Shown: positions 8,562 to 53,565, numbered from the stretch's first letter. The stretch is 64,000 bases of DNA from an uncultured Bacilli bacterium (GCA_947626115.1 CANQQX010000001.1:10000-73999); one strand, 5' to 3'. Notes: generated by a model from the sequence alone, not told the origin. Numbers and translations: made by a program.

Positions 8562-9206
8562 ATGAAGAAATATTTATCTGTATTATTTACTTTTTTTCTC
8601 AGTGTTTTAATTTTATATGCTCTAAAAGTGGAAGCAATTATGCCTTTAACTGGTAAAACTATTGTAATTGATCCAGGTCATGGATTTAAAGATCCTGGCA
8701 CTAGTTATGGTAAGATTTATGAAAAAGATATTAATTTAAATATAGCATTATTTCTAGAAAAAGAATTAGGAGCACTTGGAGCAGATGTTATTTTAACTAG
8801 AGATGGAGATTATGATTTATCTATTCCTAATGCAAATATGCGTAAAAGAAGTGATTTTAATAATCGTATCAAATTAATTAATGAAAGTAATGCTGATATG
8901 TATTTAAGTATTCATCTAAATTACTTGAGTGATGCTTCCTATTATGGACCTCAAGTATTCTATAATAAAGATAATGAAGGACTTGCTGAAGTTATGCAAA
9001 AAGTAATGAATGAAGAATTAAAAGGAAAAAGGGAAATAAAAAAAATACCAAGTGATACATATATGTATAGTAAACTAAATGTACCAGGTATTTTAATTGA
9101 ATGTGGATTTTTATCTAATGGTGTAGAAAGAAATAAATTAATAACTGAAAAATATCAAAAAAAGATAGCTGAGTCTATTGCTAAAGGAGTTCTTGAATAT
9201 TTTTAA
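8562..9206 (+). CDS. N-acetylmuramoyl-L-alanine amidase (Amidase_3, CwlD-like), secreted
   Basis: Signal peptide followed by the IVIDPGHGFKDPG zinc-binding motif of Amidase_3. Confidence 0.8.
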   Translation: MKKYLSVLFTFFLSVLILYALKVEAIMPLTGKTIVIDPGHGFKDPGTSYGKIYEKDINLNIALFLEKELGALGADVILTRDGDYDLSIPNANMRKRSDFNNRIKLINESNADMYLSIHLNYLSDASYYGPQVFYNKDNEGLAEVMQKVMNEELKGKREIKKIPSDTYMYSKLNVPGILIECGFLSNGVERNKLITEKYQKKIAESIAKGVLEYF

Positions 9207-10086
9207 TATCAAGTAATTTTATTAATTTAATAAATTCTTTAATATCTTTTTTATTATTAATAACTTGATAAGCATTTTTATTTAATTTTAAGGCAATTTT
9301 ATAAGCAATATCATGTAATTCTTTTAAAGAAAAATTATATATTTCATCTTTATTTCTAGGATTATACCAATTATTTTTATCTCTATTTAATAATTCTTCT
9401 CTAAAGCCTTTATTATAAAATGTTGTTTCACTAAATTTAACTTCATTATTTGGAAATAAAATATCGACAATTTTATATAATTTAGATTTAATGCCATGAA
9501 TATCAGTAATAAAATAGCGATAAATATAATAACCAGTATTATGTGATTTATTCATTATTTTGCCAATATTATTTTCTTCATAAGTATTTAAAAATACATA
9601 ATTAATAGTATTTTTTAAATTATCAGTAAATTTTAATTTAGGAATTAAAATTTTATATAATTTATTGTGCCATTTATCATGATATAAATTATCATAAATA
9701 TAGAAGTCTAGTAAAAATTCTATTTTACCATGGGGTATATTTAAATTATTTACTTGATAATTTATATAAGGATGCATTATTGTATCTAAAGTTAAATGAT
9801 TAATAAAACCATATAACATATTAGTAACACTAGAATCATTTTGTAAATTATTATCTTTTATATAAGTAATTAAATTAGTAAAAAATTTATCTAAATTCTT
9901 TTTATGACATCTTACCCCTAACTTACGATAGTAATCCCATTTATAAGGATAATAATATAAATTATCAAATCCTTGATTAAACATATCAAAATATTTAATA
10001 TTACTATTAATACTTTTTTGCTCATCTTTATTTAAATTATCTAATACATTATGACCAAATTTATAATGAAAATATAATGTTGGCAT
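9181..10086 (-). CDS. Hypothetical protein (His-rich N-terminus; function unknown)
   Basis: 301-aa ORF on the minus strand, convergent with the amidase. No confident motif. Confidence 0.4.
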   Translation of the reverse strand: MPTLYFHYKFGHNVLDNLNKDEQKSINSNIKYFDMFNQGFDNLYYYPYKWDYYRKLGVRCHKKNLDKFFTNLITYIKDNNLQNDSSVTNMLYGFINHLTLDTIMHPYINYQVNNLNIPHGKIEFLLDFYIYDNLYHDKWHNKLYKILIPKLKFTDNLKNTINYVFLNTYEENNIGKIMNKSHNTGYYIYRYFITDIHGIKSKLYKIVDILFPNNEVKFSETTFYNKGFREELLNRDKNNWYNPRNKDEIYNFSLKELHDIAYKIALKLNKNAYQVINNKKDIKEFIKLIKLLDIKNIQELL

Positions 10087-10213: not shown

Positions 10214-11149
10214 ATGGGGTCTAAAACATTTAAAACATTAGATGAGCAAATTGAATTATTAAAAAGTAAGGGACTCGTAATTGATGATATAGATTATGCG
10301 AAAGAGATTCTTTTAAGAGAAAATTATTTCTTTTTAAGTGGCTATAGACATTTATTTCTAAAAGATGATGGTTCGCGTAAATTTATACCAAATACCAATT
10401 TTAGAGAATTATATGGTCTATTTTATTTTGATAGACAATTAAGAAACATTTTATTTAAAAATATTTTAATTGTGGAAAACAACCTTAAAAGTATTCTATC
10501 TTATGTAATGAGTAAAAATCATGGCTTTAAAGAACAGCACTATTTAAATGCGAAGAATTTTACGCAAGATGCTAGTAAATCAAGGCAAATAAATGATTTA
10601 CTAAGGAAGATGAAAAGGCAAATTAATGTTAATGGTAAACAACATACGGCAACTAGCCATTATATATCTAATTATGGTTATATTCCTTTATGGGTAGTTG
10701 TTAAAGTTTTATCATTTGGTATTGTGGGTGAACTTTATTCCGTACTGCAAAAAGAAGATCAAAATGAAATTGCAGATATTTATGATGTATCTGTTCGTAA
10801 TCTAATTGATTATTTTCCAATACTAGCAAATTATCGTAATTTATGTGCGCATGAAGATTTATGTTTCAATAATACTACACATAAAAATATTGAAAATACT
10901 AAATATCATGATTTATTAAATATCCCCAAAAATGAAGAAGATGAATATATTTATGGTTTAAATGATTTATTTGCTATTATAATAATTATGAAGCAAATCT
11001 TACAAAGAGATGATTTTACTTTAATGATGAATGAAATAAGTTATGAACTTGACGTACTTGATGGTAGATTAAAAACAATTGAAATAAGTAAAGTATTAAA
11101 GGAAATGGGATTTCCAGAAAATTATAAAGAAATTGTGAGGGTGAATTAA
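10214..11149 (+). CDS. Abi-like abortive-infection protein (Abi_2 / AbiD-AbiF family)
   Basis: The N-terminus TLDEQIELLKSKGLVIDD...ENYFFLSGYRHLF is the characteristic opening of Abi_2 proteins. 311 aa. Confidence 0.75.
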   Translation: MGSKTFKTLDEQIELLKSKGLVIDDIDYAKEILLRENYFFLSGYRHLFLKDDGSRKFIPNTNFRELYGLFYFDRQLRNILFKNILIVENNLKSILSYVMSKNHGFKEQHYLNAKNFTQDASKSRQINDLLRKMKRQINVNGKQHTATSHYISNYGYIPLWVVVKVLSFGIVGELYSVLQKEDQNEIADIYDVSVRNLIDYFPILANYRNLCAHEDLCFNNTTHKNIENTKYHDLLNIPKNEEDEYIYGLNDLFAIIIIMKQILQRDDFTLMMNEISYELDVLDGRLKTIEISKVLKEMGFPENYKEIVRVN

Positions 11150-12930: not shown

Positions 12931-14069
12931 AGTTTAGCATGAACTACTAATTTTTTAGCACTACCATGGCAAGTAGATAAGGTAAGAGTTTTATCACTAG
13001 TAGTAACAGTAGTATTAAAATCAGCAATAGATCTACCTTTAACTAAATCAATAAATGTTTGATATTCTTCATCACTGGCAAATTCAGTTTGAATATAATC
13101 ACTTGTAGTTTCCAGAGTATAAACACTATAAATTTGCCATAAAGTATTATATTTTTCTGATGACATTTTAATAATTCTATTATCTTCTGTATTATACCAG
13201 CTTCTTGATAATAAATTTTTTAAAGTACCAAACATAGTTTGATTTTTCATATTGTGGCCATAAATAATAGTATTTCTACCATAGTCATCTTTGCTATTAC
13301 GATAATCCATAAATAGCCAACCACCACTATTTTTAGTTTTATCAAAGGAATGATTTAAATAATAATCGTTATCACTAGTTTGAACTACCGGGTAATTTAC
13401 ATTAGTACCACCCACAAATAACCATGCTACTGTATCACTGTTAGTTTTTTTAAGTGAATCAAAATTAACATCAATTAATTTCATTTTTATAAAATTCCAA
13501 TAAGGCGTGTTTGGTTTTTCATCGCTTTTAACTATTTCTGCTTCATCACTTTCATACTCATTTACTTCAGTAGTATCATTTATTTCCTTTATTAAATCTT
13601 TTGTTTTTGGTGTTTCAATAAGATAATTTATAATTTTATAGGTAGAAAAAACTAGTACAGGAATCATAATTAAAAGAATTATAAGACTTATTAATTTTCC
13701 TTTATTAAGTTTTTTTCTTTTAGTTTTTTCTTTATTATGATTATCTTCTTTTTGGCTATTTGTTATCTCTTGTTTTATTTTTATATCATTATTATCATTT
13801 TTAATGTTTTTTATTTGTTTTTCTTCTTCATTTGTTATTAATTTTTTTTCATTTAGTTTATTTTCTTTTTTGACAAAGTTTAAATCTTCTTTTTTAATAA
13901 TACTATCTTTTTTTAATTCATGATTTTCTACTAATTTTACAATATCATCTAAAGTTATAGTATAAATAGACTTATCGTTTTTATTTTTATATTCATCTTT
14001 TAATTTAGGCAATTCAATATTATCTTTTTCATTTTTTACCCTTTTTATATCACTCATTTGAACCACCAC
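12909..14069 (-). CDS. srtB: Class B sortase
   Basis: Catalytic motifs IIYGHN and TLTLSTC (TLXTC) and a conserved Arg region. Carries a roughly 120-aa Lys/Glu/Asn-rich N-terminal extension before the TM anchor. Confidence 0.8.
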   Translation of the reverse strand: MVVQMSDIKRVKNEKDNIELPKLKDEYKNKNDKSIYTITLDDIVKLVENHELKKDSIIKKEDLNFVKKENKLNEKKLITNEEEKQIKNIKNDNNDIKIKQEITNSQKEDNHNKEKTKRKKLNKGKLISLIILLIMIPVLVFSTYKIINYLIETPKTKDLIKEINDTTEVNEYESDEAEIVKSDEKPNTPYWNFIKMKLIDVNFDSLKKTNSDTVAWLFVGGTNVNYPVVQTSDNDYYLNHSFDKTKNSGGWLFMDYRNSKDDYGRNTIIYGHNMKNQTMFGTLKNLLSRSWYNTEDNRIIKMSSEKYNTLWQIYSVYTLETTSDYIQTEFASDEEYQTFIDLVKGRSIADFNTTVTTSDKTLTLSTCHGSAKKLVVHAKLIKIEAK

Positions 14070-14158
14070 TTATATTATACATTATTTTAATTAAAATTAG
14101 TAGAAGTTATTTGTCATACTATTAATATTTTGATAAAATTAATATGAATGGAGGATTT

Positions 14159-15886
14159 ATGAAAAAATTTTATAGTATAATTGAGAATAAAATAAAAGAT
14201 GCTTTAAATAAATGTAATTATCAAGTAGATAATGTTATAGTAAGTGAATCTAATCGTCCTGATTTAGGAGAGTATCAATATAATGGAATAATGTCTCTTG
14301 CTAAAATTTATCATAAAAATCCGGTAGAAATAGCTAGTGAAATAGTAAATGTATTAAAACAAGATGATTTTTTTCATGATGTTAATGTTGCTGGTCCTGG
14401 TTTTATTAATATGTCTATTAGTGATGAAGCTTTAATAGATTTTACTAATTTAGATGATTACGAATATCCCAAGAATGATAAATTAATTTTCTTTGATTAT
14501 GGGGGCGCTAATGTGGCTAAAAGTTTACATGTTGGTCATTTAAGAAGTGCTAATATTGGCGAAGCTTTAAAAAGATTATGTGAATATCTTGGCTATAAAA
14601 CTATATCTGATACTCATTTAGGTGATTGGGGGCGCCCTTTAGGTTTAGTAATTTATGAATTATCTTTAAGATATCCAGATTGGCCATTTTTTCAAGAAAA
14701 TTATGTAGGTGAATATCCTAAAGTAGATATTACTAGTGAACTTTTAGAAGAAGTTTATCCCTTTGCATCAATTAGAGCTAAAGAAGATGAAGAGTATTTA
14801 AAGATGGCTCAAAGTATGACAAAGAGACTGCAAAATAAAGAAAAAGGTATTTATGATTTATGGCTGCAAATAATGGATGTATCAAAGAAAGATATTAAAA
14901 ATATTTATGATAGATTAAATGCTAAATTTGATTTATATAAAGGAGAAAGTAATGCAGAAGATTATGTCCCAGAATTACTTGAATATTTAGATAAACTAGA
15001 TATTGTGAAAGAAAGCAAAGGTGCTAAAGTAATTGATGTCAAAGAAGATACAGATACTAAAGAAATGCCACCGATGTTACTAATTAAATCTGATGGTGGT
15101 CTTCTTTATAGTACGACAGAACTTGCTACTATTTATGATCGCATTAAAAACTATCATCCCAATGAAATATGGTATATTGCAGACAAAAGACAAGAATTGC
15201 ATTTTACCCAAGTATTTCGAGCAGCATATAAAGCTAATATAATAAAGAATGAAAAACTAGTATTTGCAGGATTTGGCACAATGAATGGTAAAGATGGGAA
15301 ACCATTCAAAACTCGCGATGGTGGCGTAATGCGTCTTATTGATTTACTAGATTCAGTAAAGAGTGAATGCCTAAAGAGATTAAATCCGGAAATAAAAGAT
15401 AATCGTGATGAGATTGCTGATAAACTGGCAATTGCCACAATAAAATATGCCGATATGTTACCAAGTCGTGAAACAGATTATAATTTTGATTTAGAAAAGT
15501 TTTGTGATTTAGAGGGTAAAACTGGCCCTTATATTGTATACTCTACTATTAGAATGAAATCACTTTTAAATAAAGTAAATGAAAGCAATATAAATTGTTC
15601 AAAATTAAAAGTAATAGTTAATGAATATGATAGAGCTTTATTATTATCATTAAATAAATTAGACAATGTCTTGAATAATGCATTTAATGATAAATCGTTA
15701 AATGCTATAACAGATTATCTTTATGAATTATCAACTAATTTTAATCGTTTTTATACAGAATGTCATGTTTTAAATGAAAGCGATAAAAATAAACAAGAAT
15801 CATGGGCATATTTAACAAGTATAGTTTACAAAGTAAATAAAATATTATTAGATATATTAGCAATAGATATACCTGATAGAATGTAA
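14159..15886 (+). CDS. argS: Arginine--tRNA ligase
   Basis: HVGHLRS class-I signature, GPGFINM, and a C-terminal DALR-type anticodon-binding region. RBS ggagg before the ATG at 14159. Confidence 0.9.
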   Translation: MKKFYSIIENKIKDALNKCNYQVDNVIVSESNRPDLGEYQYNGIMSLAKIYHKNPVEIASEIVNVLKQDDFFHDVNVAGPGFINMSISDEALIDFTNLDDYEYPKNDKLIFFDYGGANVAKSLHVGHLRSANIGEALKRLCEYLGYKTISDTHLGDWGRPLGLVIYELSLRYPDWPFFQENYVGEYPKVDITSELLEEVYPFASIRAKEDEEYLKMAQSMTKRLQNKEKGIYDLWLQIMDVSKKDIKNIYDRLNAKFDLYKGESNAEDYVPELLEYLDKLDIVKESKGAKVIDVKEDTDTKEMPPMLLIKSDGGLLYSTTELATIYDRIKNYHPNEIWYIADKRQELHFTQVFRAAYKANIIKNEKLVFAGFGTMNGKDGKPFKTRDGGVMRLIDLLDSVKSECLKRLNPEIKDNRDEIADKLAIATIKYADMLPSRETDYNFDLEKFCDLEGKTGPYIVYSTIRMKSLLNKVNESNINCSKLKVIVNEYDRALLLSLNKLDNVLNNAFNDKSLNAITDYLYELSTNFNRFYTECHVLNESDKNKQESWAYLTSIVYKVNKILLDILAIDIPDRM

Positions 15887-45465: not shown

Positions 45466-45759
45466 TTGAAAAAATTTAATACTAATAATATTGTAAAAGT
45501 TAAATTAACTGAATATGGTTTAAAATTATTAGAAAAGTCACATTATGAAATGTTAAAAAGGATGACTCCTGAATCAGCAAAATTAGTTGGTCCATTTCAA
45601 GCACCAGAAGTAGATGAAAATGGTTATAGTGAATTTCAATTATGGGAATTAATGTATTGGTTCGGCCCATATATGTATAATTTTTCGAATCAACCTTTTG
45701 AAACTGATATTTTAATTGATGAATTAAAATTAGAGGATGTTGAATCAAGAACACGCTAA
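45466..45759 (+). CDS. Hypothetical small protein
   Basis: 97-aa ORF with RBS aaggagg. No recognisable motif. Confidence 0.4.
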   Translation: MKKFNTNNIVKVKLTEYGLKLLEKSHYEMLKRMTPESAKLVGPFQAPEVDENGYSEFQLWELMYWFGPYMYNFSNQPFETDILIDELKLEDVESRTR

Positions 45760-45858: not shown

Positions 45859-46503
45859 ATGTTAATAAATGAAGTAGAAAATATTGTAGGACTTTCCAAA
45901 AAAAGTATTCGTTTTTATGAAGAAAATGGTTTACTTAGCCCTAAAAGAAAAGAAGATAATGGTTATCGTATTTATACAGAAGAAGATATTCATAAATTAA
46001 AAGTTATTAAATTTTTAAGAGAGTTAGATGTTCCAATTAGAGAATTAAATTTATTAAATGAAGGTAAATTAACTTTAGAAGAATGTCTAAAAATGCGTAT
46101 TGATAAAATAAAAGATTTAGAAGGAAAATTTTTAAGAGTAAAAAAATTATGTGAAGAAATTATCAATGAAAAACTAGAATATAATGATATAGATATTGAT
46201 AAATATTTTATTAATATTAGAGTCTTAAATAAGGAGGGATTTACAATGCATAAAAATAAAAGTAATAATAGAAAAAAAATAATAGGTGCTACTATATCAA
46301 CCTTAATATTTTCTAGTATATTTATCTTTTTAATATCTGTTATTAGTTATTTTCAATTTACGGAAAGTGAAAATATACCTTGGTTTATATATATTTTCTT
46401 AATGATAATATTATTATTACCAATTTTAGCAGTATTGTATAATTTAGTTATGAGAATTAAAGAAATTTTAGGAGGTGAAGAAGATGAAGCTAGTAAATAT
46501 TGA
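45859..46503 (+). CDS. MerR family regulator with C-terminal transmembrane segments
   Basis: MerR HTH (IVGLSKKSIRFYEENGLLSP...GYRIYTEEDIHKL) followed by two hydrophobic helices. Confidence 0.7.
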   Translation: MLINEVENIVGLSKKSIRFYEENGLLSPKRKEDNGYRIYTEEDIHKLKVIKFLRELDVPIRELNLLNEGKLTLEECLKMRIDKIKDLEGKFLRVKKLCEEIINEKLEYNDIDIDKYFINIRVLNKEGFTMHKNKSNNRKKIIGATISTLIFSSIFIFLISVISYFQFTESENIPWFIYIFLMIILLLPILAVLYNLVMRIKEILGGEEDEASKY

Positions 46504-46819
46504 TTATATTCCAGGTGAAGAAATAGAAGAAGCACTAGGTTTAGTTAAAGGACAAATTGTACAATCAAAAAATATAGGTCGCGATTTCATGGCAGGTCTT
46601 AAAACTATCGTTGGTGGTGAAATAGTTAGTTATACGGACATGATTGCCTTAGCAAGGAAAATGGCTACGAAAAGAATGGTTGATGAAGCTGAAAGTCTAG
46701 GAGCTGATGCAATTATTAATGTTCGTTATGGATCTTCTGCTGTTATGGGTGGTGCAGCAGAAATAATTGCCTATGGAACCGCCGTTAAATTAAAAAAGCA
46801 AAAGAATACAAAAGATTAG
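46484..46819 (+). CDS. YbjQ/UPF0145 family protein
   Basis: IPGEEIEEALGLVKGQIVQSKNIGRDFMAGLKTIVGGEI...AESLGADAIINVRYGSS is the typical YbjQ sequence. RBS ggagg before the ATG at 46484. Confidence 0.8.
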   Translation: MKLVNIDYIPGEEIEEALGLVKGQIVQSKNIGRDFMAGLKTIVGGEIVSYTDMIALARKMATKRMVDEAESLGADAIINVRYGSSAVMGGAAEIIAYGTAVKLKKQKNTKD

Positions 46820-46955
46820 TTAATTCATAATTAATCTTTTTAATTTTGGAAAAATGTGTAAATTTGTCTTTTAAAGGAGAATAACATAGAAAATATTAGC
46901 CCTTTAAAAAAGTAAAAAATTGTTATATAATACGATAACATTACAGGGGTGTAAT

Positions 46956-49319
46956 ATGCAAAAAAATGAAATAATTGAACTTATCAACAAAAAAACTATT
47001 GAAGCAAAGAAAATTATTAATGAAATTAATGAATTAAAACTTATGCTTAAAAACTATGATAACAAAATCACAAATAATTATACAAATGAAGAAAAAATAA
47101 ATATTTTTATGGATTATTTTAAAGGTAGAGATAATGTGTATCCGTATCTTTCTATTGATAAAAAAGATCCTAGCAAAAAGTATTATGTACCAAAATGCGC
47201 TAATGAATGGAATAAAAATGTCTGTAATAAAACTATGAATAAAAAATGTAAAGATTGTAATTATTGGCTTGATAAACCAATTGATAAAGAAGTAATTAGA
47301 AATCATTTATTTAATAATAATCATATTGGTATTTATCCTATGTTAGAAGATGAAACTTGTTATTTTCTTGTTTTTGATTTTGATGATAAGAAAAACGAAA
47401 ATGATATAAAAGAAGATGTACTTGCTTTTGCTAATATATGTGATAAATATAACGTTCCAATTTCAATCGAAAGAAGTAGGTCTGGTCATGGATACCATAT
47501 ATGGATTTTTTTTGAAAATAATATCAAAGCATTAACAGCAAGAAAAATGGGAAGTTTACTATTATCAAAAACAATGGAAATAAGAGATAATTTAAAAATA
47601 AATTCTTTTGATAGAATGTTTCCTAATCAAGATACTATGCCTAAAGGTGGCTATGGCAATTTAATTATGCTTCCTTTTCAAAATGAACCTATGAAGTGTA
47701 ATAACACAGTTTTTTTAGATAGGAACTTTAATGTTTATAATGACCAATATTATTATTTAGCTAAAGTTAAAAAAATGAGTTATGATGAAGTTCTAAGTAT
47801 TATAAAAATATTATCTGAAAGTACAATAGACATTAGTAGTGAAAATATAGAATTAAAAGAAGAAATAAATAAAAAAGAAAAAAATAATTTTGATTTTCCA
47901 AAAAGTATTAATTTAATATTAGATAATATGGTTTATATAGATAAAGCAAATTTAAGTTCAGCAGTTAAAAATTGTTTTAGAAGACTTGCAACATTTGCAA
48001 ATCCAGAATTTTTTAAAAAGCAACGAATGAGAATGTCTGTTCATAATATTCCTATGATAATAGATTGTAGTAAAGAAGATGATAAATATTTGATGCTTCC
48101 AAGAGGAAAATTTGAATATTTATATAATTTATGTAAACAAAATGATATAAAAATGAATATTGTTGATAAAAGAAATAAAGGTAAAAAAATTAATATAAAA
48201 TTTAATGGCAAATTAAGAGAAGACCAACAAGATGCATTAAATGAAATGTTAAAATATGAAAATGGAATACTTGAAGCCCCAACTGGATTTGGCAAAACTG
48301 TTATATGTTGTAAATTAATTGAAGTGAGAAATGTTAATACACTTATTATTACTTTTAATTTATCACTTTTAAAACAATGGAAAGAAAGATTAAAAGAGTT
48401 TTTAAATATTGATGAAGTTGGCCAAATTGGTGATGGAAAAAATACTTTAACAAATAAAATTGATGTAGCAAGTATTAAAGCAATTTATAATGATGGAAAA
48501 TTTAATGATATGGTTAAAAATTATGGAATGATAATTATAGACGAGTGTCATCATTCATCGGCTTATACATATGAAGCTGCCTTGAATATGGTTAATGCTA
48601 AATATGTATATGGTGTATCCGCAACTCCCGAAAAAGAAAATGGACATACACCAATTATTAAAATGCAATGTGGTGATATTAGATATAAAGTTAATATGAA
48701 AGAATATAATAAAAAATTAAATTTAAAAATGAAAGTGTATAATAAAAGTGTTCATTTGAATTTTGTTAATAAAAATGTAACCGATTATAAAATCAATGAA
48801 ATATATGATTTAATATCTAAAGATGTTATAAGAAATGAAGTAGTTATTAAAGATGTGGAAAATGAATTTAAAAGTGGTAAAAATATTCTAGTTTTAACAG
48901 AACGAATTGAACATTTAGAGTATTTGTATGAAAAATTATCTAAAATAACTAACAATATAATTGTATATCGAGGTGGATTAAGTAAAAAGATTTTAAAAAA
49001 ATATGATGAATTAAATGATAACATAAAGAAAAATAATGAAAATAAAATTATAATTGCTACAAGTTCTTGTATTGGTGAAGGATTTGATGATTCTAGTTTG
49101 GAAGTTTTATTTTTAACTATGCCTATATCTAGTATAAATAGAATCGTACAATATACCGGAAGATTACATAGAAAAAATGAAAATAAAAAAGAAATAATTG
49201 TTTATGATTATGTTGATGATAATTTTTCAATGATTAGAAATATGTTTTTAAAAAGAAAGAAAGCATATGAAAAAGTTGGTTATGAAATTATTGAAAATAA
49301 TTGTCAAATGTCATTATAA
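46956..49319 (+). CDS. Fusion protein: N-terminal archaeo-eukaryotic primase-polymerase (AEP/PrimPol-like) domain + C-terminal SF2 DECH-box helicase (ResIII-like)
   Basis: N-terminal half: Cys-rich CANEWNKNVCNKTMNKKCKDCNYW, acidic FLVFDFDD (hhDhD-type motif I) and SRSGHGYHIWIFF (sGxGxH-type motif II), in AEP spacing. C-terminal half: Walker A APTGFGKTV, IIIDECHH (motif II), SATP (motif III) and QYTGRLHR (motif VI). RBS aggggtg before the ATG at 46956; the ORF track starts at 46920. Confidence 0.55.
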   Translation: MQKNEIIELINKKTIEAKKIINEINELKLMLKNYDNKITNNYTNEEKINIFMDYFKGRDNVYPYLSIDKKDPSKKYYVPKCANEWNKNVCNKTMNKKCKDCNYWLDKPIDKEVIRNHLFNNNHIGIYPMLEDETCYFLVFDFDDKKNENDIKEDVLAFANICDKYNVPISIERSRSGHGYHIWIFFENNIKALTARKMGSLLLSKTMEIRDNLKINSFDRMFPNQDTMPKGGYGNLIMLPFQNEPMKCNNTVFLDRNFNVYNDQYYYLAKVKKMSYDEVLSIIKILSESTIDISSENIELKEEINKKEKNNFDFPKSINLILDNMVYIDKANLSSAVKNCFRRLATFANPEFFKKQRMRMSVHNIPMIIDCSKEDDKYLMLPRGKFEYLYNLCKQNDIKMNIVDKRNKGKKINIKFNGKLREDQQDALNEMLKYENGILEAPTGFGKTVICCKLIEVRNVNTLIITFNLSLLKQWKERLKEFLNIDEVGQIGDGKNTLTNKIDVASIKAIYNDGKFNDMVKNYGMIIIDECHHSSAYTYEAALNMVNAKYVYGVSATPEKENGHTPIIKMQCGDIRYKVNMKEYNKKLNLKMKVYNKSVHLNFVNKNVTDYKINEIYDLISKDVIRNEVVIKDVENEFKSGKNILVLTERIEHLEYLYEKLSKITNNIIVYRGGLSKKILKKYDELNDNIKKNNENKIIIATSSCIGEGFDDSSLEVLFLTMPISSINRIVQYTGRLHRKNENKKEIIVYDYVDDNFSMIRNMFLKRKKAYEKVGYEIIENNCQMSL

Positions 49320-49358
49320 TCTTTAAATTTATGGTAAAATAAAAGTAGGGTGACTGCT

Positions 49359-51020
49359 ATGTATAAAAACGATGAAGAATTAAGTAAAATATTAGATGAA
49401 TTATTATTAAACGCAGAAAACGAGTGTGTAGAGTTCAAAAAAGCTGAAAATAATTTTGACGTTGATATTTTAGGCAAATATTTTTCTGCATTGGGTAATG
49501 AGGCAAATTTAAAAAATAAGCAATATTCTTGGATTGTTTTTGGAGTTGATGATAAAACTCACAAATTAACAAATACAAACTTTTACAAAGATAGCAATTT
49601 TAATAAATTAAAAAAGCAAATTTCTGATAATACAACAGATAATATTGGATTTATAGAAATATATGAATTGATAAAAGATAGCAAAAGAGTAATAATGTTT
49701 CAAGTACCAGCGGCTTCGGGAACTCCTATTAATTGGAAAGGGTTTCCTTATGGTAGAAATGGTGAATCTTTAACTTCTTTAACATCAAATAAAATAGAGC
49801 AAATTAAAGCAACAGCAAATTATGATTGGTCAAGACAAGTAATAGAAGATGCAACTATAGATAATCTAGATAAAAAAGCAATTCAAATGGCAAGAGAACA
49901 ATTTAAAATAAAATATAAAGGTAAAAGTATTTCTGATGAAATAGACGATTTATCAGATATTGATTTTTTAAATAAGGCAAAATTGACTTTGAATAATAAA
50001 ATTACAATGGCATGTATGTTATTATTAGGTAATAATGATGATGACTATCTAATGAATGGTTATACACCGAGAATGACTTGGAAATTGTATGATGAATTTA
50101 ATGTTATAGACTATGAACATTTTGGCATTCCTTTTATTGTAAATGTTGAAAAATTAAAAGCAAAGATTAGAAATTTAAGATATAGATATATGGTTAATGA
50201 TAATACATTGTTTCCAAATGAAGTAGATCAATATGATAATTATATTCTTCGGGAATTGATTAATAATTGTATTGTTCATCAAGATTATAAGCTTCGTGGA
50301 AGTATAAATGTTATGGAATTTAAAGATAAACTGATAATAACAAATGAGGGTAATTTTATTCCTGAAACAATTGAAAATGTTTTAAAGGATGGTTTCTCTT
50401 CTCCATATTATAGAAATCAATTTTTGGCTAATGCTATGGTTAATTTAAATATGATTGATACTGTTGGAAGTGGAATAAGAAGAGTATATGATATTCAAAA
50501 GAGAAAATTTTTTCCAATGCCTGATTATGATTTAAGTAGAGATAATCATGTTAAAGTAACTTTATATGGAAAAATTATAGATGAAAAATATAGTAAAATA
50601 TTATTTGAAAAAACAAATTTAGATATAGATAAGGTTATGTTACTTGATAGAGTTCAAAAAAATTATGAAATTACAAAGGAACAATGTGATTATTTAAGAA
50701 AAGATAATTTAATAGAAGGTAGATATCCAAATATTTATATTTCATCTGATATTGCTAAAATAACCGGAAACAAAGAAGAATATGTGTATAATTCCGGATT
50801 AGAAAATGAATTTTATATGGAAATTATTATGAAATATTTGAATGAATATGGTTCAGCAAGTAGAAAAGAGATTGTTGCATTATTGAATGATAAACTTCCT
50901 AAATCATTAGATAATAAGAATAAAATTAATAGAGTAAGATACTTATTAGATGTTCTAAAAAAAGATGGAAAAATTTATAATGATGCAAAATCAGGAGGAT
51001 CATGTTGGAAAGTTAAATGA
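49359..51020 (+). CDS. Schlafen/AlbA_2 + HATPase_c_4 family ATPase (often misannotated as RecG-like), with C-terminal winged-helix
   Basis: N-terminal ENECVEFKKAENNF fits the AlbA_2 (divergent AAA/Schlafen-like) opening. The central FPNEVDQYDNYILRELINNCIVHQDY...IITNEGNFIP fits the HATPase_c_4 pattern. RBS tagggtga before the ATG at 49359; the ORF track starts at 49350. Confidence 0.55.
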   Translation: MYKNDEELSKILDELLLNAENECVEFKKAENNFDVDILGKYFSALGNEANLKNKQYSWIVFGVDDKTHKLTNTNFYKDSNFNKLKKQISDNTTDNIGFIEIYELIKDSKRVIMFQVPAASGTPINWKGFPYGRNGESLTSLTSNKIEQIKATANYDWSRQVIEDATIDNLDKKAIQMAREQFKIKYKGKSISDEIDDLSDIDFLNKAKLTLNNKITMACMLLLGNNDDDYLMNGYTPRMTWKLYDEFNVIDYEHFGIPFIVNVEKLKAKIRNLRYRYMVNDNTLFPNEVDQYDNYILRELINNCIVHQDYKLRGSINVMEFKDKLIITNEGNFIPETIENVLKDGFSSPYYRNQFLANAMVNLNMIDTVGSGIRRVYDIQKRKFFPMPDYDLSRDNHVKVTLYGKIIDEKYSKILFEKTNLDIDKVMLLDRVQKNYEITKEQCDYLRKDNLIEGRYPNIYISSDIAKITGNKEEYVYNSGLENEFYMEIIMKYLNEYGSASRKEIVALLNDKLPKSLDNKNKINRVRYLLDVLKKDGKIYNDAKSGGSCWKVK

Positions 51021-51127
51021 TTTGCTTTTTGTCGCTTTTTTGCCGCCTTTTGCTGCTTTTTTGCCGCTTTTTGCTGCTTTTTTGCCGCTTTTTGCTGCTT
51101 TTTTGCCGCTTTTTGCTGCTTTTTTGA
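51021..51127. repeat. GC-rich tandem repeat of about 4.7 x 21 bp (ttttttgccgctttttgctgc), equivalent to about 10 phased T5-6 tracts at about 10.5-bp spacing
   Basis: Read directly from the sequence. The units sit at 51036, 51057, 51078 and 51099, plus a partial unit at 51021. Each unit consists of two tttttgcNgc half-units. Confidence 0.85.
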
Positions 51128-51167
51128 ATTACATTATTGTGCTGAGTTAAAGATTTTTTAAAAAAAT

Positions 51168-51195
51168 TTGACAAATTAAAAAAATTGTGTATAAT
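51168..51195 (+). promoter_or_regulatory. Strong orphan promoter TTGACA-16-TATAAT immediately downstream of the phased T-tract array
   Basis: TTGACA (51168-51173) and TATAAT (51190-51195), preceded by gtg. Confidence 0.55.
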
Positions 51196-51269
51196 TTTAT
51201 AGCAAGTGAGGAGATATAAACAATTTGTGAGCTATCTCGGGTAAAAAACCTACACAATGAATAATTGGA

Positions 51270-51296
51270 GTCACGAATATTGTTCGTGGCTTTTTC
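51270..51296 (+). terminator. Intrinsic terminator closing a ~95-nt transcript from the 51168 promoter
   Basis: GTCACGAA-tattg-TTCGTGGC (8 bp with one G-U pair) followed by T5. Confidence 0.5.
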
Positions 51297-51591
51297 ATAT
51301 TTTAAACACGAATAATAAGGGGAATAGCACCGGTACATTAAAATATGTATTTTTAAAGTGAGTATGTATAAGTTTAAACGAGCTACATAGGGAGTAATTC
51401 TTACACGCATAATTGCGGAGTCACTATCATTTTAATATGGTATTTGACAACGCAATTTTTTATTTTAGTTATAATTGTTATTGATGGGAAAATAATATGT
51501 TATTTATTTAAATAATAACTTAAAAAAAACAAGTTTTTTTAGTATCCCATACCAAAATTAGTCACTGAAAAGTGGCTTTTTAAAATAATTA

Positions 51592-51867
51592 AATATTAAA
51601 GAATTAATTAATTTTTTAAGAGATTTGTTTTTAAAAAGTTTTGCTGGAGTATCAACTAAACATTTACAACAATATTTAGATTGGTTTGTATATCAAAAAT
51701 ATTTAACATATAGTATAGAAATTTTAGAACAACCACAAGTACTTATGAATTATGCACTTAGTAGAAAATCATATATAAAAATTTCTGACATTTACTCTAT
51801 GGATTTTCCAGTTAACATATATGATATTTATTCCGACTATAATTTTTCTCCATCACCTCAAATCTAA
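51592..51867 (+). pseudogene. IS1595-family transposase C-terminal remnant
   Basis: ...FLKSFAGVSTKHLQQYLDWFVYQ matches the IS1595 transposase C-terminal motif (SFWS..K....HVSKKHLQRYLDEFAFRYN). In-frame stops lie immediately upstream, so only about 40 codons of transposase-like sequence remain. Confidence 0.4.
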
Positions 51868-51909
51868 TACACAGCAAAAAAATTAAAAAAATTATATGAT
51901 AAAATTTAA

Positions 51910-52713
51910 ATGAGAGGTGATAATGTGGAAGAAAGAAAAGAAGAAGAACAATTTTATCAAAATCTATTAGTGGCAGGTGATGATTTACCTGAAAATATTG
52001 CTAATACTCCAATTAAGGATTTAGAATTATCTAATAGAATTAAAAATTCTCTTACAAAAAGAATGAGAATAACTACATTAGGTCAATTATTAAGAACTGA
52101 TTATAATTATTTTCTTAGGGCATGTAGATGCCATAGTTATCTAGGAGAACTAGCTATAAAAGAAATAAAAGATTTTATTCATAATTTAGGTTATATATTC
52201 CCTAATGAATACCCATCTATGAAAGAAATTACAAATGCAAAAAAAGCTAAAGGTATAAAATTATTAGAAGATTATGGTTTCTCTACTCGACTTTGTGGTG
52301 CTTTATATAGAAATGGTATTTTTACCCTTGAAGATTTACAAGCTGTTGGTAGTGTAGTAGAAAAACTAGAGGGTGTTGGTCCTATAAAAGTTAAAGAATT
52401 ATATGAAAAATTAGAAAAATTACAAATAGGATTAGAAGATAAAACTCCTGAAACTGTTAAATTAGCAAATCCTAAATTAGTTGCAAATGGTTTAGAATTT
52501 GCCCCAACAGTTGAGAAAATGCAAGAACTTCAACAATCAAATGAAGAAATAAGAAATAGAATTGCACAAAAAGAATTATTATTAAAAGAGTATGAAGAAA
52601 TACTTCGTGAAAGAGAAGACTTGCTTAAAAAGGAAAGAGAATTAGATGATTTGATTGCTAAAAAGTTACAAGAATTATCTAATAACAAAGGAGCTGAAAT
52701 CAATGGACGATAA
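51910..52713 (+). CDS. Protein with two tandem RNA polymerase alpha-subunit C-terminal-domain (alpha-CTD)-like HhH modules plus C-terminal coiled coil
   Basis: IKDLELSNRIKNSLTKRMRITTLGQLL...GELAIKEIKDFIHNLGY fits the alpha-CTD pattern (LeLSvR..N.L....I.T.g.L.......G.....EI...L...G). LLEDYGFSTRLCGALYRNGIFTLEDLQAV...GVGPIKVKELYEKL is a second copy. Confidence 0.5.
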   Translation: MRGDNVEERKEEEQFYQNLLVAGDDLPENIANTPIKDLELSNRIKNSLTKRMRITTLGQLLRTDYNYFLRACRCHSYLGELAIKEIKDFIHNLGYIFPNEYPSMKEITNAKKAKGIKLLEDYGFSTRLCGALYRNGIFTLEDLQAVGSVVEKLEGVGPIKVKELYEKLEKLQIGLEDKTPETVKLANPKLVANGLEFAPTVEKMQELQQSNEEIRNRIAQKELLLKEYEEILREREDLLKKERELDDLIAKKLQELSNNKGAEINGR

Positions 52714-52864
52714 TAGTATATTAGCAATGTTGCATTTAGATTCTGAAATAGAAGATTTGAAAGAAGAAATAAAAAGATTAAAAACAATTAATGAATTAAC
52801 TAAAATAAATATTGAAAAGAAAAAATTATATTTAGAAAAATTAAATATAGAAAGTAATAATTAA
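52703..52864 (+). CDS. Small coiled-coil protein, hypothetical
   Basis: About 53 aa from MDDNSILAML..., overlapping the end of the previous gene. Weak call. Confidence 0.3.
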   Translation: MDDNSILAMLHLDSEIEDLKEEIKRLKTINELTKINIEKKKLYLEKLNIESNN

Positions 52865-52923
52865 AAGAGACTAGATTTTAATCTCTTTTTTTTGCTAAAA
52901 TATTATGTAGAAAGAGTGATTGT

Positions 52924-53565
52924 ATGAAAAAGATTATTTTAAGTTTATTAGTATGTTTATTTTTATTTACTGGTTGTGGTAGTAATAATTTAGAATCTGG
53001 AGAAATTGAAGGATATGCTTATGAAGAAACTGATAAAGTAACAAATTATGTTAAAATAGTAACAAATAGAGATAAAGTTATTATTGCGGAGTTATATCCC
53101 GATATTGCACCTGAAACTGTAGCTAATTTCCAAAAATTAGTTAAAGAAAAATTTTATGATAAATTAATATTTCATCGCGTAATTAAAGATTTTATGATTC
53201 AAACTGGTGATCCTTTAGGTAATGGTACCGGTGGTAGTGATGAAACTATTAAAGGTGAATTTAAAGAAAATGGCTTTGAAAATACTTTAAAACATGATTA
53301 TGGCGTACTATCAATGGCAAGACAAGATGACCAAAATCCAGATACCACAGATGATTTTAATAGTGCTAGTAGTCAGTTCTTTATTTGTGTTAATAGTAAC
53401 GAGAATTTAAGTTATTTAGATGGAAATTATGCTGCCTTTGGTAAAGTAATCGCGGGTTATGATGCCGTTGAAGAAATCTCTAAAGTAGAAACTGATGAAT
53501 ATGATAAACCAATAAATACCGAAATGATGCGGACAGTTAGATTTGTTAAAGTATCTAAAAAATAA
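52924..53565 (+). CDS. Cyclophilin-type peptidyl-prolyl cis-trans isomerase, lipoprotein
   Basis: Lipobox LFTGCGS, with FHRVIKDFMIQTGDPLGNGTGG as the cyclophilin signature. Confidence 0.85.
   Translation: MKKIILSLLVCLFLFTGCGSNNLESGEIEGYAYEETDKVTNYVKIVTNRDKVIIAELYPDIAPETVANFQKLVKEKFYDKLIFHRVIKDFMIQTGDPLGNGTGGSDETIKGEFKENGFENTLKHDYGVLSMARQDDQNPDTTDDFNSASSQFFICVNSNENLSYLDGNYAAFGKVIAGYDAVEEISKVETDEYDKPINTEMMRTVRFVKVSKK

Follow-up and report, generated by a model that had tools for sequence, protein, structure and literature searches.

Proteins that join an archaeo-eukaryotic primase (AEP) domain to a helicase have been named CAPP-Helicase, the third type of class CAPP_A, and are the most prevalent form among non-CRISPR homologues of CAPP (Zabrady et al., 2021, PMC8211822). 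CAPP enzymes combine primase and polymerase activity, prime with dNTPs and carry out strand displacement, the biochemistry within CAPP being limited to the TPR-type MpCAPP (PMC8211822). The name of the TOTE system is made up of TPR, OB, TBP and Effector, a definition by Aravind, Iyer and Burroughs (2022) that is cited in bioRxiv 10.1101/2025.09.15.676423. Proteins with an AlbA_2 (Schlafen) and a GHKL-type ATPase domain form the 'Schlatpase' supradomain, which accounts for 58.6% of 103,533 prokaryotic Schlafen (pSlfn) proteins; these are mainly small, and some end in a helix-turn-helix (HTH) at the C-terminus (Kuzmenko et al., 2026, bioRxiv 10.64898/2026.05.29.728809); elsewhere, pSlfn-HisKinase and pSlfn-HisKinase-HTH were reported to make up 34% and 19.2% of pSlfn proteins, respectively (Perez Taboada et al., 2026, PMC13056530). 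Here we describe a chromosomal locus in which a primase-helicase gene of the first kind (gene 1) and a Schlatpase gene of the second, probably with an HTH (gene 2), lie side by side, within a 64,000-nucleotide stretch (GCA_947626115.1, CANQQX010000001.1:10000-73999; hereafter the window) from an uncultured low-G+C Bacilli lineage of animal guts.

Both genes belong to families that are already described, and the locus is a new example rather than a new kind of system. Our preferred reading, with a probability of roughly 0.55, is a defence-type hot spot between the genes for YbjQ and a peptidyl-prolyl isomerase (PPIase), occupied by two autonomous and separately exchangeable cassettes, each consisting of a promoter and a gene. 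An earlier interpretation from the DNA alone (the sequence-only reading) had proposed either an undescribed two-gene conflict system or a cryptic replicon. Of these two, a role in conflict or defence is the better supported, an argument of guilt by association; gene 1 has intact catalytic motifs in both halves, a sporadic distribution and tight linkage to abortive-infection (Abi) and toxin-antitoxin genes.

Gene 1 and its family

The open reading frame (ORF) of gene 1 opens at a TTG codon at 46920, its 787 residues being counted from the ATG; gene 2 follows in the same orientation after a spacer of 39 nt. The ORFs, their co-directional adjacency and every motif quoted in the sequence-only reading were present in the translation (for gene 1 FLVFDFDD, SRSGHGYHIWIFF, the Walker A motif GFGKT, DECHH, SAT and QYTGRLHR, a QxxGRxxR motif), and the domain calls for both genes were borne out by Pfam matches to AEP-TOTE, ResIII, DEAD, Helicase_C, SLFN_AlbA_2 and HATPase_c_4, all above gathering cut-offs. 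Residues 46-280 of gene 1 gave a full-length match to the AEP-TOTE profile (PF22548; E 3.6e-83; 279 bits, cut-off 27; model positions 1-228 of 230), followed by ResIII at residues 419-559 (E 4.7e-26) and Helicase_C at residues 637-740. The AEP domain contains a Cys4 cluster (C81/C90/C98/C101) that is predicted to bind zinc, D141xD143, S174-H181 (sGxGxH) and D219. AEP motifs I (DxD), II (sGxGxH) and III (hD) are intact and were invariant or at least 90% conserved in 56 diverse homologues chosen at 50% identity or less, across which D141, D143, S176, G179, H181, D219, the Cys4 cluster, GKT, DECHH and motif VI were invariant or almost invariant.

A sequence search of the PDB matched gene 1 to the crystal structures of the CAPP Prim-Pol (primase-polymerase) 7nqf/7nqd (E 7e-13). 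An AlphaFold model with the alignment of the 56 homologues as input (pLDDT 91.5, pTM 0.85) was superposed by Foldseek on CAPP structures 7nqe/7nqf/7p9j with target-normalised template-modelling scores of 0.77-0.81 and root-mean-square deviations of 3.2-4.0 Å. The AEP fold that the sequence-only reading had assigned to the N-terminal half of gene 1, and whose absence would by its own account have refuted it, was thereby confirmed. A long N-terminal helix in the model (residues 3-35) is predicted to form a coiled-coil. The C-terminal ~480 residues fitted archaeal and eukaryotic XPB (E 2e-22, ~486 aligned columns), the superposition taking in the small domain that precedes the helicase (residues ~317-404), and sequence matches in the PDB to XPB/Rad25 began at residue 390 (6p4f, E 6e-25). 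Archaeal XPB, whose partner is the nuclease Bax1, gave the best structure and sequence match for residues ~390-780, pre-helicase domain included; unlike it, gene 1 is fused to a primase, has no Bax1-like gene and scored 62.3 bits on the XPB equivalog of NCBIfam against a cut-off of 610. As judged from the model, the likeness to the XPB/Rad25 repair helicase is at the fold level only.

The family is large. A search for gene 1 homologues gave more than 3396 matches, the best 120 of which were all full length with the same architecture, and the AEP domain by itself, run against 1.84 billion cluster representatives, matched 5501 clusters, 725 of them at E <= 1e-30. Among the 56 diverse full-length representatives, which are 28-43% identical to gene 1, 55 carried a ResIII/DEAD helicase and 11 also PLDc_2. 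About one third of the homologues are longer (900-1050 aa), and those examined have a PLD (PLDc_2) or DUF559 (Vsr-like) nuclease at the C-terminus. In E. coli, homologues occurred in 876 of 5426 complete genomes (16%), O157:H7 with WP_000233452.1 included, under the RefSeq name 'TOTE conflict system archaeo-eukaryotic primase domain-containing protein'. The fusion of an AEP domain with a superfamily 2 (SF2) helicase, which had been taken as unusual and undescribed, is therefore the standard PF22548 architecture; gene 1 shares with that family the end-to-end model match, the AEP plus ResIII/Helicase_C arrangement and all conserved catalytic residues, and the 'CAPP-Helicase' name dates from 2021.

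Gene 1 differs from a TOTE system in the gene content around it. Partner genes for TPR-OB (cold-shock domain, CSD) or TBP proteins were absent from the window ORFs flanking gene 1, and TPR, CSD, OB and TBP were not among the 25 best-represented families listed for 82 operonic neighbours in 103 lineages (see below). Gene 1 is thus a PF22548 member outside a complete TOTE system, that is, a solo member of the family. With CAPP-Helicase it shares the resemblance to the Prim-Pol domain of MpCAPP in sequence and modelled fold, and the 'PrimPol' CRISPR-associated model of PADLOC matched it at E 7e-77; unlike CAPP, the window has no cas genes or CRISPR array (neighbouring and other large ORFs, tandem-repeat scan and Rfam CRISPR-DR), and gene 1 stayed far below the cut-off for the type A1 CAPP equivalog (NCBIfam NF040561, 93.3 bits against 200).

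Three homologues from other hosts were found in different settings. On the chromosome of E. coli O157:H7 MB41-1 (L197, 3414797-3435163; comparison loci are given L numbers), the homologue ends an integrase-HTH-YfjI(DUF3987)-Gp2 island beside ycdU, and on plasmid B of E. coli M11 (L195) it adjoins genes for DprA and for a small hypothetical protein on the opposite strand. Pantoea stewartii pDSJ06 (L196, 6271-9265) has a small serine recombinase gene 28 nt upstream of the homologue; a recent proposal takes such a layout to mark defence cassettes (PMC13552941).

Gene 2, a Schlatpase with a probable HTH

Gene 2 matched SLFN_AlbA_2 (PF04326) at residues 20-138 (E 3e-13, 50.8 bits, cut-off 25.3) and HATPase_c_4 (PF13749, GHKL) at residues 315-402 (E 8e-15, 55.1 bits, cut-off 26), in the same order as in Schlatpase/pSlfn-HisKinase-HTH proteins. 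It also shares with these the E(x)4(D/E)xK nuclease motif (E20-NECV-E25-F-K27, or E20x4E25xK27), the Schlafen-box-like SALGN and the GHKL E/N residues; FGVDD was likewise located by alignment with homologues. GHKL residues E299, N303, H307, N353 and G372 were invariant in 14 sequences (gene 2 and 13 AEP-adjacent homologues). The tail itself gave no Pfam match and aligns with the tails of the L042 and L064 proteins, which match MarR, HTH_24 or DIP2311-like_C; to judge from this alignment, it is a probable winged-helix-like HTH. Sequence searches of gene 2 against solved structures returned no match.

The class to which gene 2 belongs had been described in the sequence-only reading as almost never characterised, a statement overtaken by the recognition of the Schlatpase supradomain and of relatives with tRNase and abortive-infection activity. 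In SLFN-pAgo, ATP binding to the GHKL domain leads to tetramerisation, and the Schlafen domain cuts tRNA and aborts infection (bioRxiv 10.64898/2026.05.29.728809); pSlfn5 is a Mn-dependent tRNase whose trigger is a phage protein (PMC13056530). The defence-island context of gene 2 agrees with that reported for the class (bioRxiv 10.64898/2026.05.29.728809, PMC13056530). Unlike the characterised Schlatpases, gene 2 lacks a pAgo, NACHT, Ig-like or DUF262 sensor domain, and its subclade is set apart from other Schlatpases by an extra insert of ~90 aa ahead of the last winged helix and by an array of T-tracts after the stop codon (see below).

Proteins 83-92% identical to gene 2 were seen on many gut metagenome contigs in unrelated chromosomal contexts (L198-L213 being those of P0425, P0403 and P0410), one of them beside GerA spore-germination genes. 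In the index of the assembly collection, one homologue (P0425) appears in 344 blocks, and for gene 2-like proteins many assemblies give isolated contigs of ~2.0 kb.

Association of the two genes

The neighbours of gene 1 were recorded for 134 full-length homologues from genomes, IMG/VR and metagenomes, which were collapsed to 103 lineages at 90% identity. AlbA_2-HATPase_c_4 proteins were the commonest neighbour, in 13 of the 103 lineages, and no other family exceeded this number. Eleven of these 13 Schlatpases were immediately adjacent (four at position -1, seven at +1) and 11 were co-directional, with gaps mostly of 23-90 nt. They were also unevenly placed: 11 of 188 neighbours at +-1 were Schlatpases vs. 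2 of 285 at +-2/3 (Fisher p = 0.001, odds ratio 8.8). Conversely, 87% of the AEP-helicase lineages had no Schlatpase nearby and 37 of the 103 had no operonic neighbour at all, and a conserved operon partner for gene 1 was rejected, given that the top neighbour family occurs in just 13 lineages.

Co-evolution of the two genes was rejected as well. The Schlatpase partners are 20-39% identical to each other, and their divergence was not correlated with that of the AEP proteins (Spearman 0.09); in L006, an AEP protein 84% identical to that of the window has a Schlatpase that is merely 23% identical. Each gene was also found intact by itself. Gene 1 occurs without gene 2 in L002, L004 and L007-L010, and gene 2 homologues 89-91% identical to that of the window (P0425, P0403 and P0410) lie in three unrelated chromosomal contexts without gene 1, while in L017 and L018 gene 1 is frameshifted and gene 2 intact. 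The association of the genes is thus recurrent but facultative, and the two-gene system of the sequence-only reading was not upheld.

The other neighbours of gene 1, found where some lineages have the Schlatpase, included AbiEii/AbiEi, AAA_14-DUF4143 (PADLOC PDC-S01; adjoining gene 1 homologues in L015, L006 and L070), AAA_21, Fic, RhuM, Abi_2, HipA, a GNAT toxin, McrBC and PtuB. In having a large SF2 ATPase gene flanked by interchangeable Abi or toxin genes, these loci resemble Abi genes beside helicase-containing restriction enzymes, of which PrrC, embedded within EcoprrI, is an example; where Abi/restriction-modification (R-M) loci are anchored by an R-M enzyme, however, a primase-helicase is the anchor here. 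Stand-alone Schlatpase genes have been found in type I R-M operons (bioRxiv 10.64898/2026.05.29.728809).

An unannotated family of ~550 aa (32-78% identical, no Pfam match) also recurs beside gene 1 homologues in Bacilli lineages (L026 8353-10029, also L027-L031; L005 5979-7628; L007 12301-13938). At one locus its gene comes directly downstream of the gene 1 homologue after a gap of 3 nt, with a DUF6429 gene behind it.

Cassette exchange and limits of the island

Across 35 loci with close homologues of gene 1, DNA homology starts sharply at 46902-46906, at a promoter-like site, and stops no more than ~80 nt past the stop codon unless gene 2 follows. The flanks of these loci are otherwise unrelated, with patchy synteny among subsets only, and this includes sister metagenome-assembled genomes. 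Gene 2 has a promoter-like site of its own, which overlaps the end of gene 1 (Table 1).

Remnants of earlier occupants were found at several loci. L007 retains, at 13979-14277, a 300-nt 3' fragment of an older gene 1 allele that is 85% identical; 5'-end remnants of gene 2 follow gene 1 in L002 (41 nt) and L003 (245 nt), and solo copies of gene 2 retain 9-82 nt of the 3' end of gene 1. Because these relics lie beside the genes that replaced them, they point to repeated overwriting of cassettes by illegitimate recombination; no recombinase was evident at the relic-bearing loci. Sequence comparison indicates that the pair is probably ancestral in this Bacilli clade and that its halves were later lost or replaced independently. 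For gene 2, the data suggest a one-gene cassette with recent and wide horizontal spread. Relic sites of gene 1 (3') or gene 2 (5' or 3') were noted at L188 8821-8962, L189 5880-6083, L002 ~10365-10443, L003 10424-10685 and L208 4379-4485.

The limits of the island were set by comparison with relatives. L193 is an empty site with the order MerR-YbjQ-PPIase-UvrA. L188, the closest relative, is 93-95% identical to the window at the nucleotide level in the island flanks and carries at the site, in this order, an AAA_14-DUF4143 gene, 125 nt left over from the 3' end of gene 2 together with a short array of repeats, and a His_Phos_1 gene. Since nucleotide homology to L188 is lost after 46866 and regained at 52851, the island spans ~46867-52850 (~6 kb); homology to L193 returns at 52896, and Pro_isomerase is found in both relatives. 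The segment is a horizontally exchanged accessory island, chromosomal and flanked by housekeeping genes. In this respect the sequence-only reading was right, although it had drawn the left border too wide by including the genes for the MerR-type regulator and YbjQ: this pair keeps the same neighbours in L188, L191 and L193, relatives without genes 1 and 2, and is therefore backbone. The MerR protein with its transmembrane tail is a conserved gene of the lineage, with homologues 57-95% identical and nearly all 213-214 aa long.

The rest of the window is housekeeping in character (PFOR, ArgRS, FemAB, sortase, an ABC transporter, UvrA and others), the island lying two genes upstream of uvrA. No integrase, relaxase, partition (Par), Mob, Rep or phage gene was found among the proteins of the 64-kb window, and G+C and skew profiles gave no island signal, with ~22-26% G+C in the 1-kb windows of the island, as in most flanking sequence. 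AAA_14-DUF4143 ATPase genes (a PADLOC candidate) were located at L188 7475-8827, L189 4506-5888 and L193 6234-7568; in the closest relative such a gene fills the hot spot, and in another it is found just upstream of MerR.

Table 1. Features of the locus, with positions counted from the first nucleotide of the window.
Feature	Position	Strand	Basis or remark
MerR-type regulator with transmembrane tail	45859-46503	+	Pfam; left backbone flank, outside island
YbjQ	46475-46819	+	Pfam; left backbone flank, outside island
Variable island (hot spot) between YbjQ and PPIase genes	46867-52850	.	Comparison with L188 and L193
Conserved leader of gene 1, with promoter-like site 46903-46931	46902-46955	+	Start of DNA homology; promoter scan, 10/12 positions
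Gene 1, AEP-TOTE/CAPP-type primase-polymerase with XPB-like SF2 helicase, 787 aa	46956-49319	+	Pfam, PDB, AlphaFold, Foldseek
AEP (Prim-Pol) catalytic domain, aa 46-280	47091-47795	+	PF22548; Foldseek to CAPP
XPB-like module: small alpha/beta domain (aa ~317-404) and two RecA-like lobes (aa 419-780)	47904-49295	+	PDB, Foldseek
Promoter-like site of gene 2, TTGAAA-18-TATAAT	49291-49320	+	Promoter scan, 11/12 positions; overlaps end of gene 1
Gene 2, Schlatpase with probable HTH (pSlfn-HisKinase-HTH), 553 aa	49359-51020	+	Pfam, motif alignment
Phased T-tract array, 21 bp x ~5 (10-11-bp half-units)	51024-51128	+	Directly after gene 2 stop codon
Orphan promoter 51168-51195 (12/12 consensus, sigma-70) and terminator 51267-51293	51168-51300	+	Promoter/terminator scan
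Short ORF, possible IS1595 relic	51625-51867	+	Weak match to transposase C-terminal end
Right-hand cargo gene, 267 aa, RpoA-CTD-like helix-hairpin-helix and coiled-coil tail	51910-52713	+	Pfam RNA_pol_A_CTD, E 5.6e-7
Peptidyl-prolyl isomerase (PPIase)	52924-53565	+	Right backbone flank, outside island

Repeats, promoter unit and other features

The array downstream of gene 2 (51024-51126 in the tandem-repeat scan, 21 bp x 4.9 copies, 95% matches) is the strongest tandem repeat in the window. Arrays follow gene 2 homologues in L017, L018 and L020/21 and also the gene 2 relic in L188/L189, with a copy number that varies even between the window and L001, which is of the same strain; those of L005 and L014 have other unit sequences with the same period. 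They were absent from gene-1-only loci among the close-homologue loci compared. As the repeats persist with the gene 2 relic where gene 1 is absent, they go with gene 2, and their interpretation as iterons of gene 1 was rejected. Bent DNA, a binding site for the HTH and a recombination site are possibilities for their role. In the Schlatpase subclade of gene 2, the arrays consist of T-tract (or A-tract) units starting within a few bases of the stop codon (L017 4495-4590, L018 12066-12115, L021 10076-10160, L188 8945-8975, L189 6030-6085, L005 12067-12110 and L014 7959-8010).

Further to the right, the sequence-only reading had listed an orphan promoter and an insertion sequence (IS) scar along with the repeats. 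The repeats and the promoter are real. The terminator, a strong intrinsic one, starts ~75 nt past the promoter, and the two are predicted to delimit a small-RNA-like unit, for which no Rfam match was found. A second promoter-like copy lies at ~51443-51480, with a related stretch running to ~51450, and the intervening segment 51175-51428 (~255 nt) is absent from L188. The IS1595 scar is doubtful: the match to NCBIfam NF033547 covers 22 residues (E 3.8e-4) and is far below the cut-off. Beside this putative relic, an AT-rich and partly palindromic 64-nt sequence (51577-51637) has a 76% identical copy 42 kb away on the minus strand (9200-9263), a pair that may be a coincidence of AT-rich DNA or represent a terminal repeat common to both sites. 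A transposase identity for the 301-aa ORF next to that copy (9181-10086) was rejected, its product being Zn-dependent phospholipase C-like. Where the window has the 267-aa cargo gene, overlapped by a 69-aa ORF (51910-52864), L188 carries the His_Phos_1 (histidine phosphatase) gene.

Outside the island, the segment 45407-45797, which lies between BcrAD and MerR and which the window and L001 have in common, is missing from L188-L191 and marks a second indel. Its ORF (45466-45759, 97 aa) gave matches (E ~1e-10) with two PHROG families, both of unknown function. The sole Rfam family at gathering threshold in the window was a SAM (S-adenosylmethionine) riboswitch (RF00162, 5206-5289, 64.6 bits).

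Proposed function and alternative explanations

If the hot spot serves defence, gene 1 would act on invading DNA. Its XPB-like, ATP-driven motor could open or translocate on foreign duplex and pass ssDNA (single-stranded DNA) on to the Prim-Pol, which would prime and extend DNA and in this way jam replication or produce nuclease substrates. By homology with SLFN-pAgo and pSlfn5, ATP bound to the GHKL domain of gene 2 may drive the formation of oligomers that assemble the Schlafen E(x)4ExK nuclease, and the assembled nuclease may cleave tRNA and cause abortive infection; the probable HTH tail would serve to bind DNA or to sense a signal. Joint acquisition of both genes is likely in this clade, though on this reading they work and persist independently.

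Several observations weigh against this reading. The position-specific adjacency of the Schlatpases hints at more than co-location. Gene 1 is the short form of its family and lacks a nuclease that could act as effector; PADLOC has the protein only in an accessory 'CRISPR-associated PrimPol' model, with no system built on it, and a literature search found no paper with an experimentally tested AEP-SF2 (AEP-helicase) defence gene. As for gene 2, seven pSlfn constructs, HisKinase fusions among them (at most two), were assayed in E. coli and the DUF262 and Ig-like fusions alone protected, so the HisKinase fusions were not protective (PMC13056530).

Part of this evidence would be accommodated by a coupled sensor-effector pair, in which the AEP-helicase detects or processes invader DNA and thereby licenses the Schlatpase-HTH tRNase, or in which the Schlatpase guards the AEP-helicase and fires when a phage inhibits it, as PrrC guards EcoprrI. 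We regard such coupling as a tentative alternative, well behind independent action. Besides the frequency and the position-specific, co-directional adjacency of Schlafen-GHKL neighbours, it is favoured by the repeated origin of the association, which involves unrelated Schlatpase lineages and both sides of gene 1, by relics indicating that the pairing is probably ancestral in the Bacilli clade, by HisKinase-type pSlfn constructs being unprotective on their own and by the activation of human SLFN11 by ssDNA (PMC13056530). What speaks against it is the large majority of lineages without a nearby Schlatpase, the substitution of AbiEii, Fic, HipA and similar genes in other lineages, the lack of partner co-evolution, the close gene 2 homologues that exist without gene 1, the decay of gene 1 beside an intact gene 2, and the promoter-like site that gene 2 possesses. 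A more general and more speculative form, which we hold to be rather unlikely, would make the AEP-XPB-like helicase an anchor for sensing and processing invader DNA that recruits interchangeable, adjacent one-gene Abi effectors, candidates being the Schlatpase tRNase, AbiEii, AAA_14-DUF4143, Fic, HipA and the ~550-aa family; at this locus, primers or ssDNA made by the AEP-helicase, or a phage that inhibits it, would activate the Schlatpase-HTH.

Two further explanations dispense with a defence role for gene 1. It could be an accessory enzyme of DNA repair or damage tolerance, a helicase-polymerase fusion similar to Pol theta or to the pAgo-associated PrimPol AgaPP with its helicase, that reprimes or joins ends at stalled forks or breaks and leaves invaders alone. 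The closest relatives of its helicase half are the repair helicases XPB, RadD and UvsW, and for AgaPP, a PrimPol derived from a mobile genetic element (MGE), translesion synthesis, microhomology-mediated end joining and better survival after DNA damage have been reported (PMC11724360). The proximity to uvrA might be added, but it is seen at the empty site too and is thus a property of the backbone. We consider this role improbable in view of the strain-variable, sporadic occupation of hot spots (16% of E. coli; the site empty or otherwise filled in close relatives), of tightly linked neighbours that are toxins and Abi genes rather than repair genes, and of homologues with C-terminal PLD or Vsr-like nucleases. 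Least probable of all, in our estimation, is that the segment serves an integrated or degraded plasmid, integrative and conjugative element or satellite as its replication module, with the AEP-helicase as replicase and the repeats as iterons or origin. AEP-helicase fusions are classic replicases of MGEs, those of the pRN1 ORF904 type being Prim-Pol-SF3 fusions. Gene 1 is like these, and like AgaPP with its PriCT-DUF3987 helicase (PMC11724360), in having Prim-Pol and helicase in one polypeptide or operon, and non-CRISPR CAPP homologues usually reside in MGEs and transposable elements (Zabrady et al., PMC8211822). Moreover, 36 full-length homologues were on IMG/VR contigs, tyrosine integrases lay within three genes in 8 of the 103 lineages and serine recombinases in 4, and 112 of 72,556 plasmids carried a homologue. 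Unlike MGE replicases, however, gene 1 has an SF2 (XPB-like) helicase rather than SF3 or SF4, and no origin-like element is tied to it: the repeats travel with gene 2, and the conserved unit is promoter and ORF only. The window holds none of the mobility, partition or phage genes listed above. The AEP domain had 0 matches in 50,697 phage genomes, which led to the rejection of a phage origin, and no strong PHROG primase match was obtained. The plasmids are mostly large, and the one with replicon annotation that was examined, Pantoea pDSJ06, has its own IncFII RepA; the E. coli islands come with a separate YfjI/DUF3987-type protein, and nuclease-tailed homologues are ill-suited to a replicase role.

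Implications

Should each gene act alone, as the preferred reading of independent cassettes has it, the locus is an ordinary defence island; it is in any case a well-delimited example of two named families in a clean hot spot with both empty and alternative alleles. The AEP-helicase family counts thousands of members and reaches 16% of complete E. coli genomes, with O157:H7 among them. If the helicase does act as an anchor for interchangeable effectors, this would supply the trigger for the most abundant and so far inactive class of bacterial Schlafens. The repeated, position-specific juxtaposition of both families could point to a new DNA-synthesis-based defence or a new coupling between sensor and effector.

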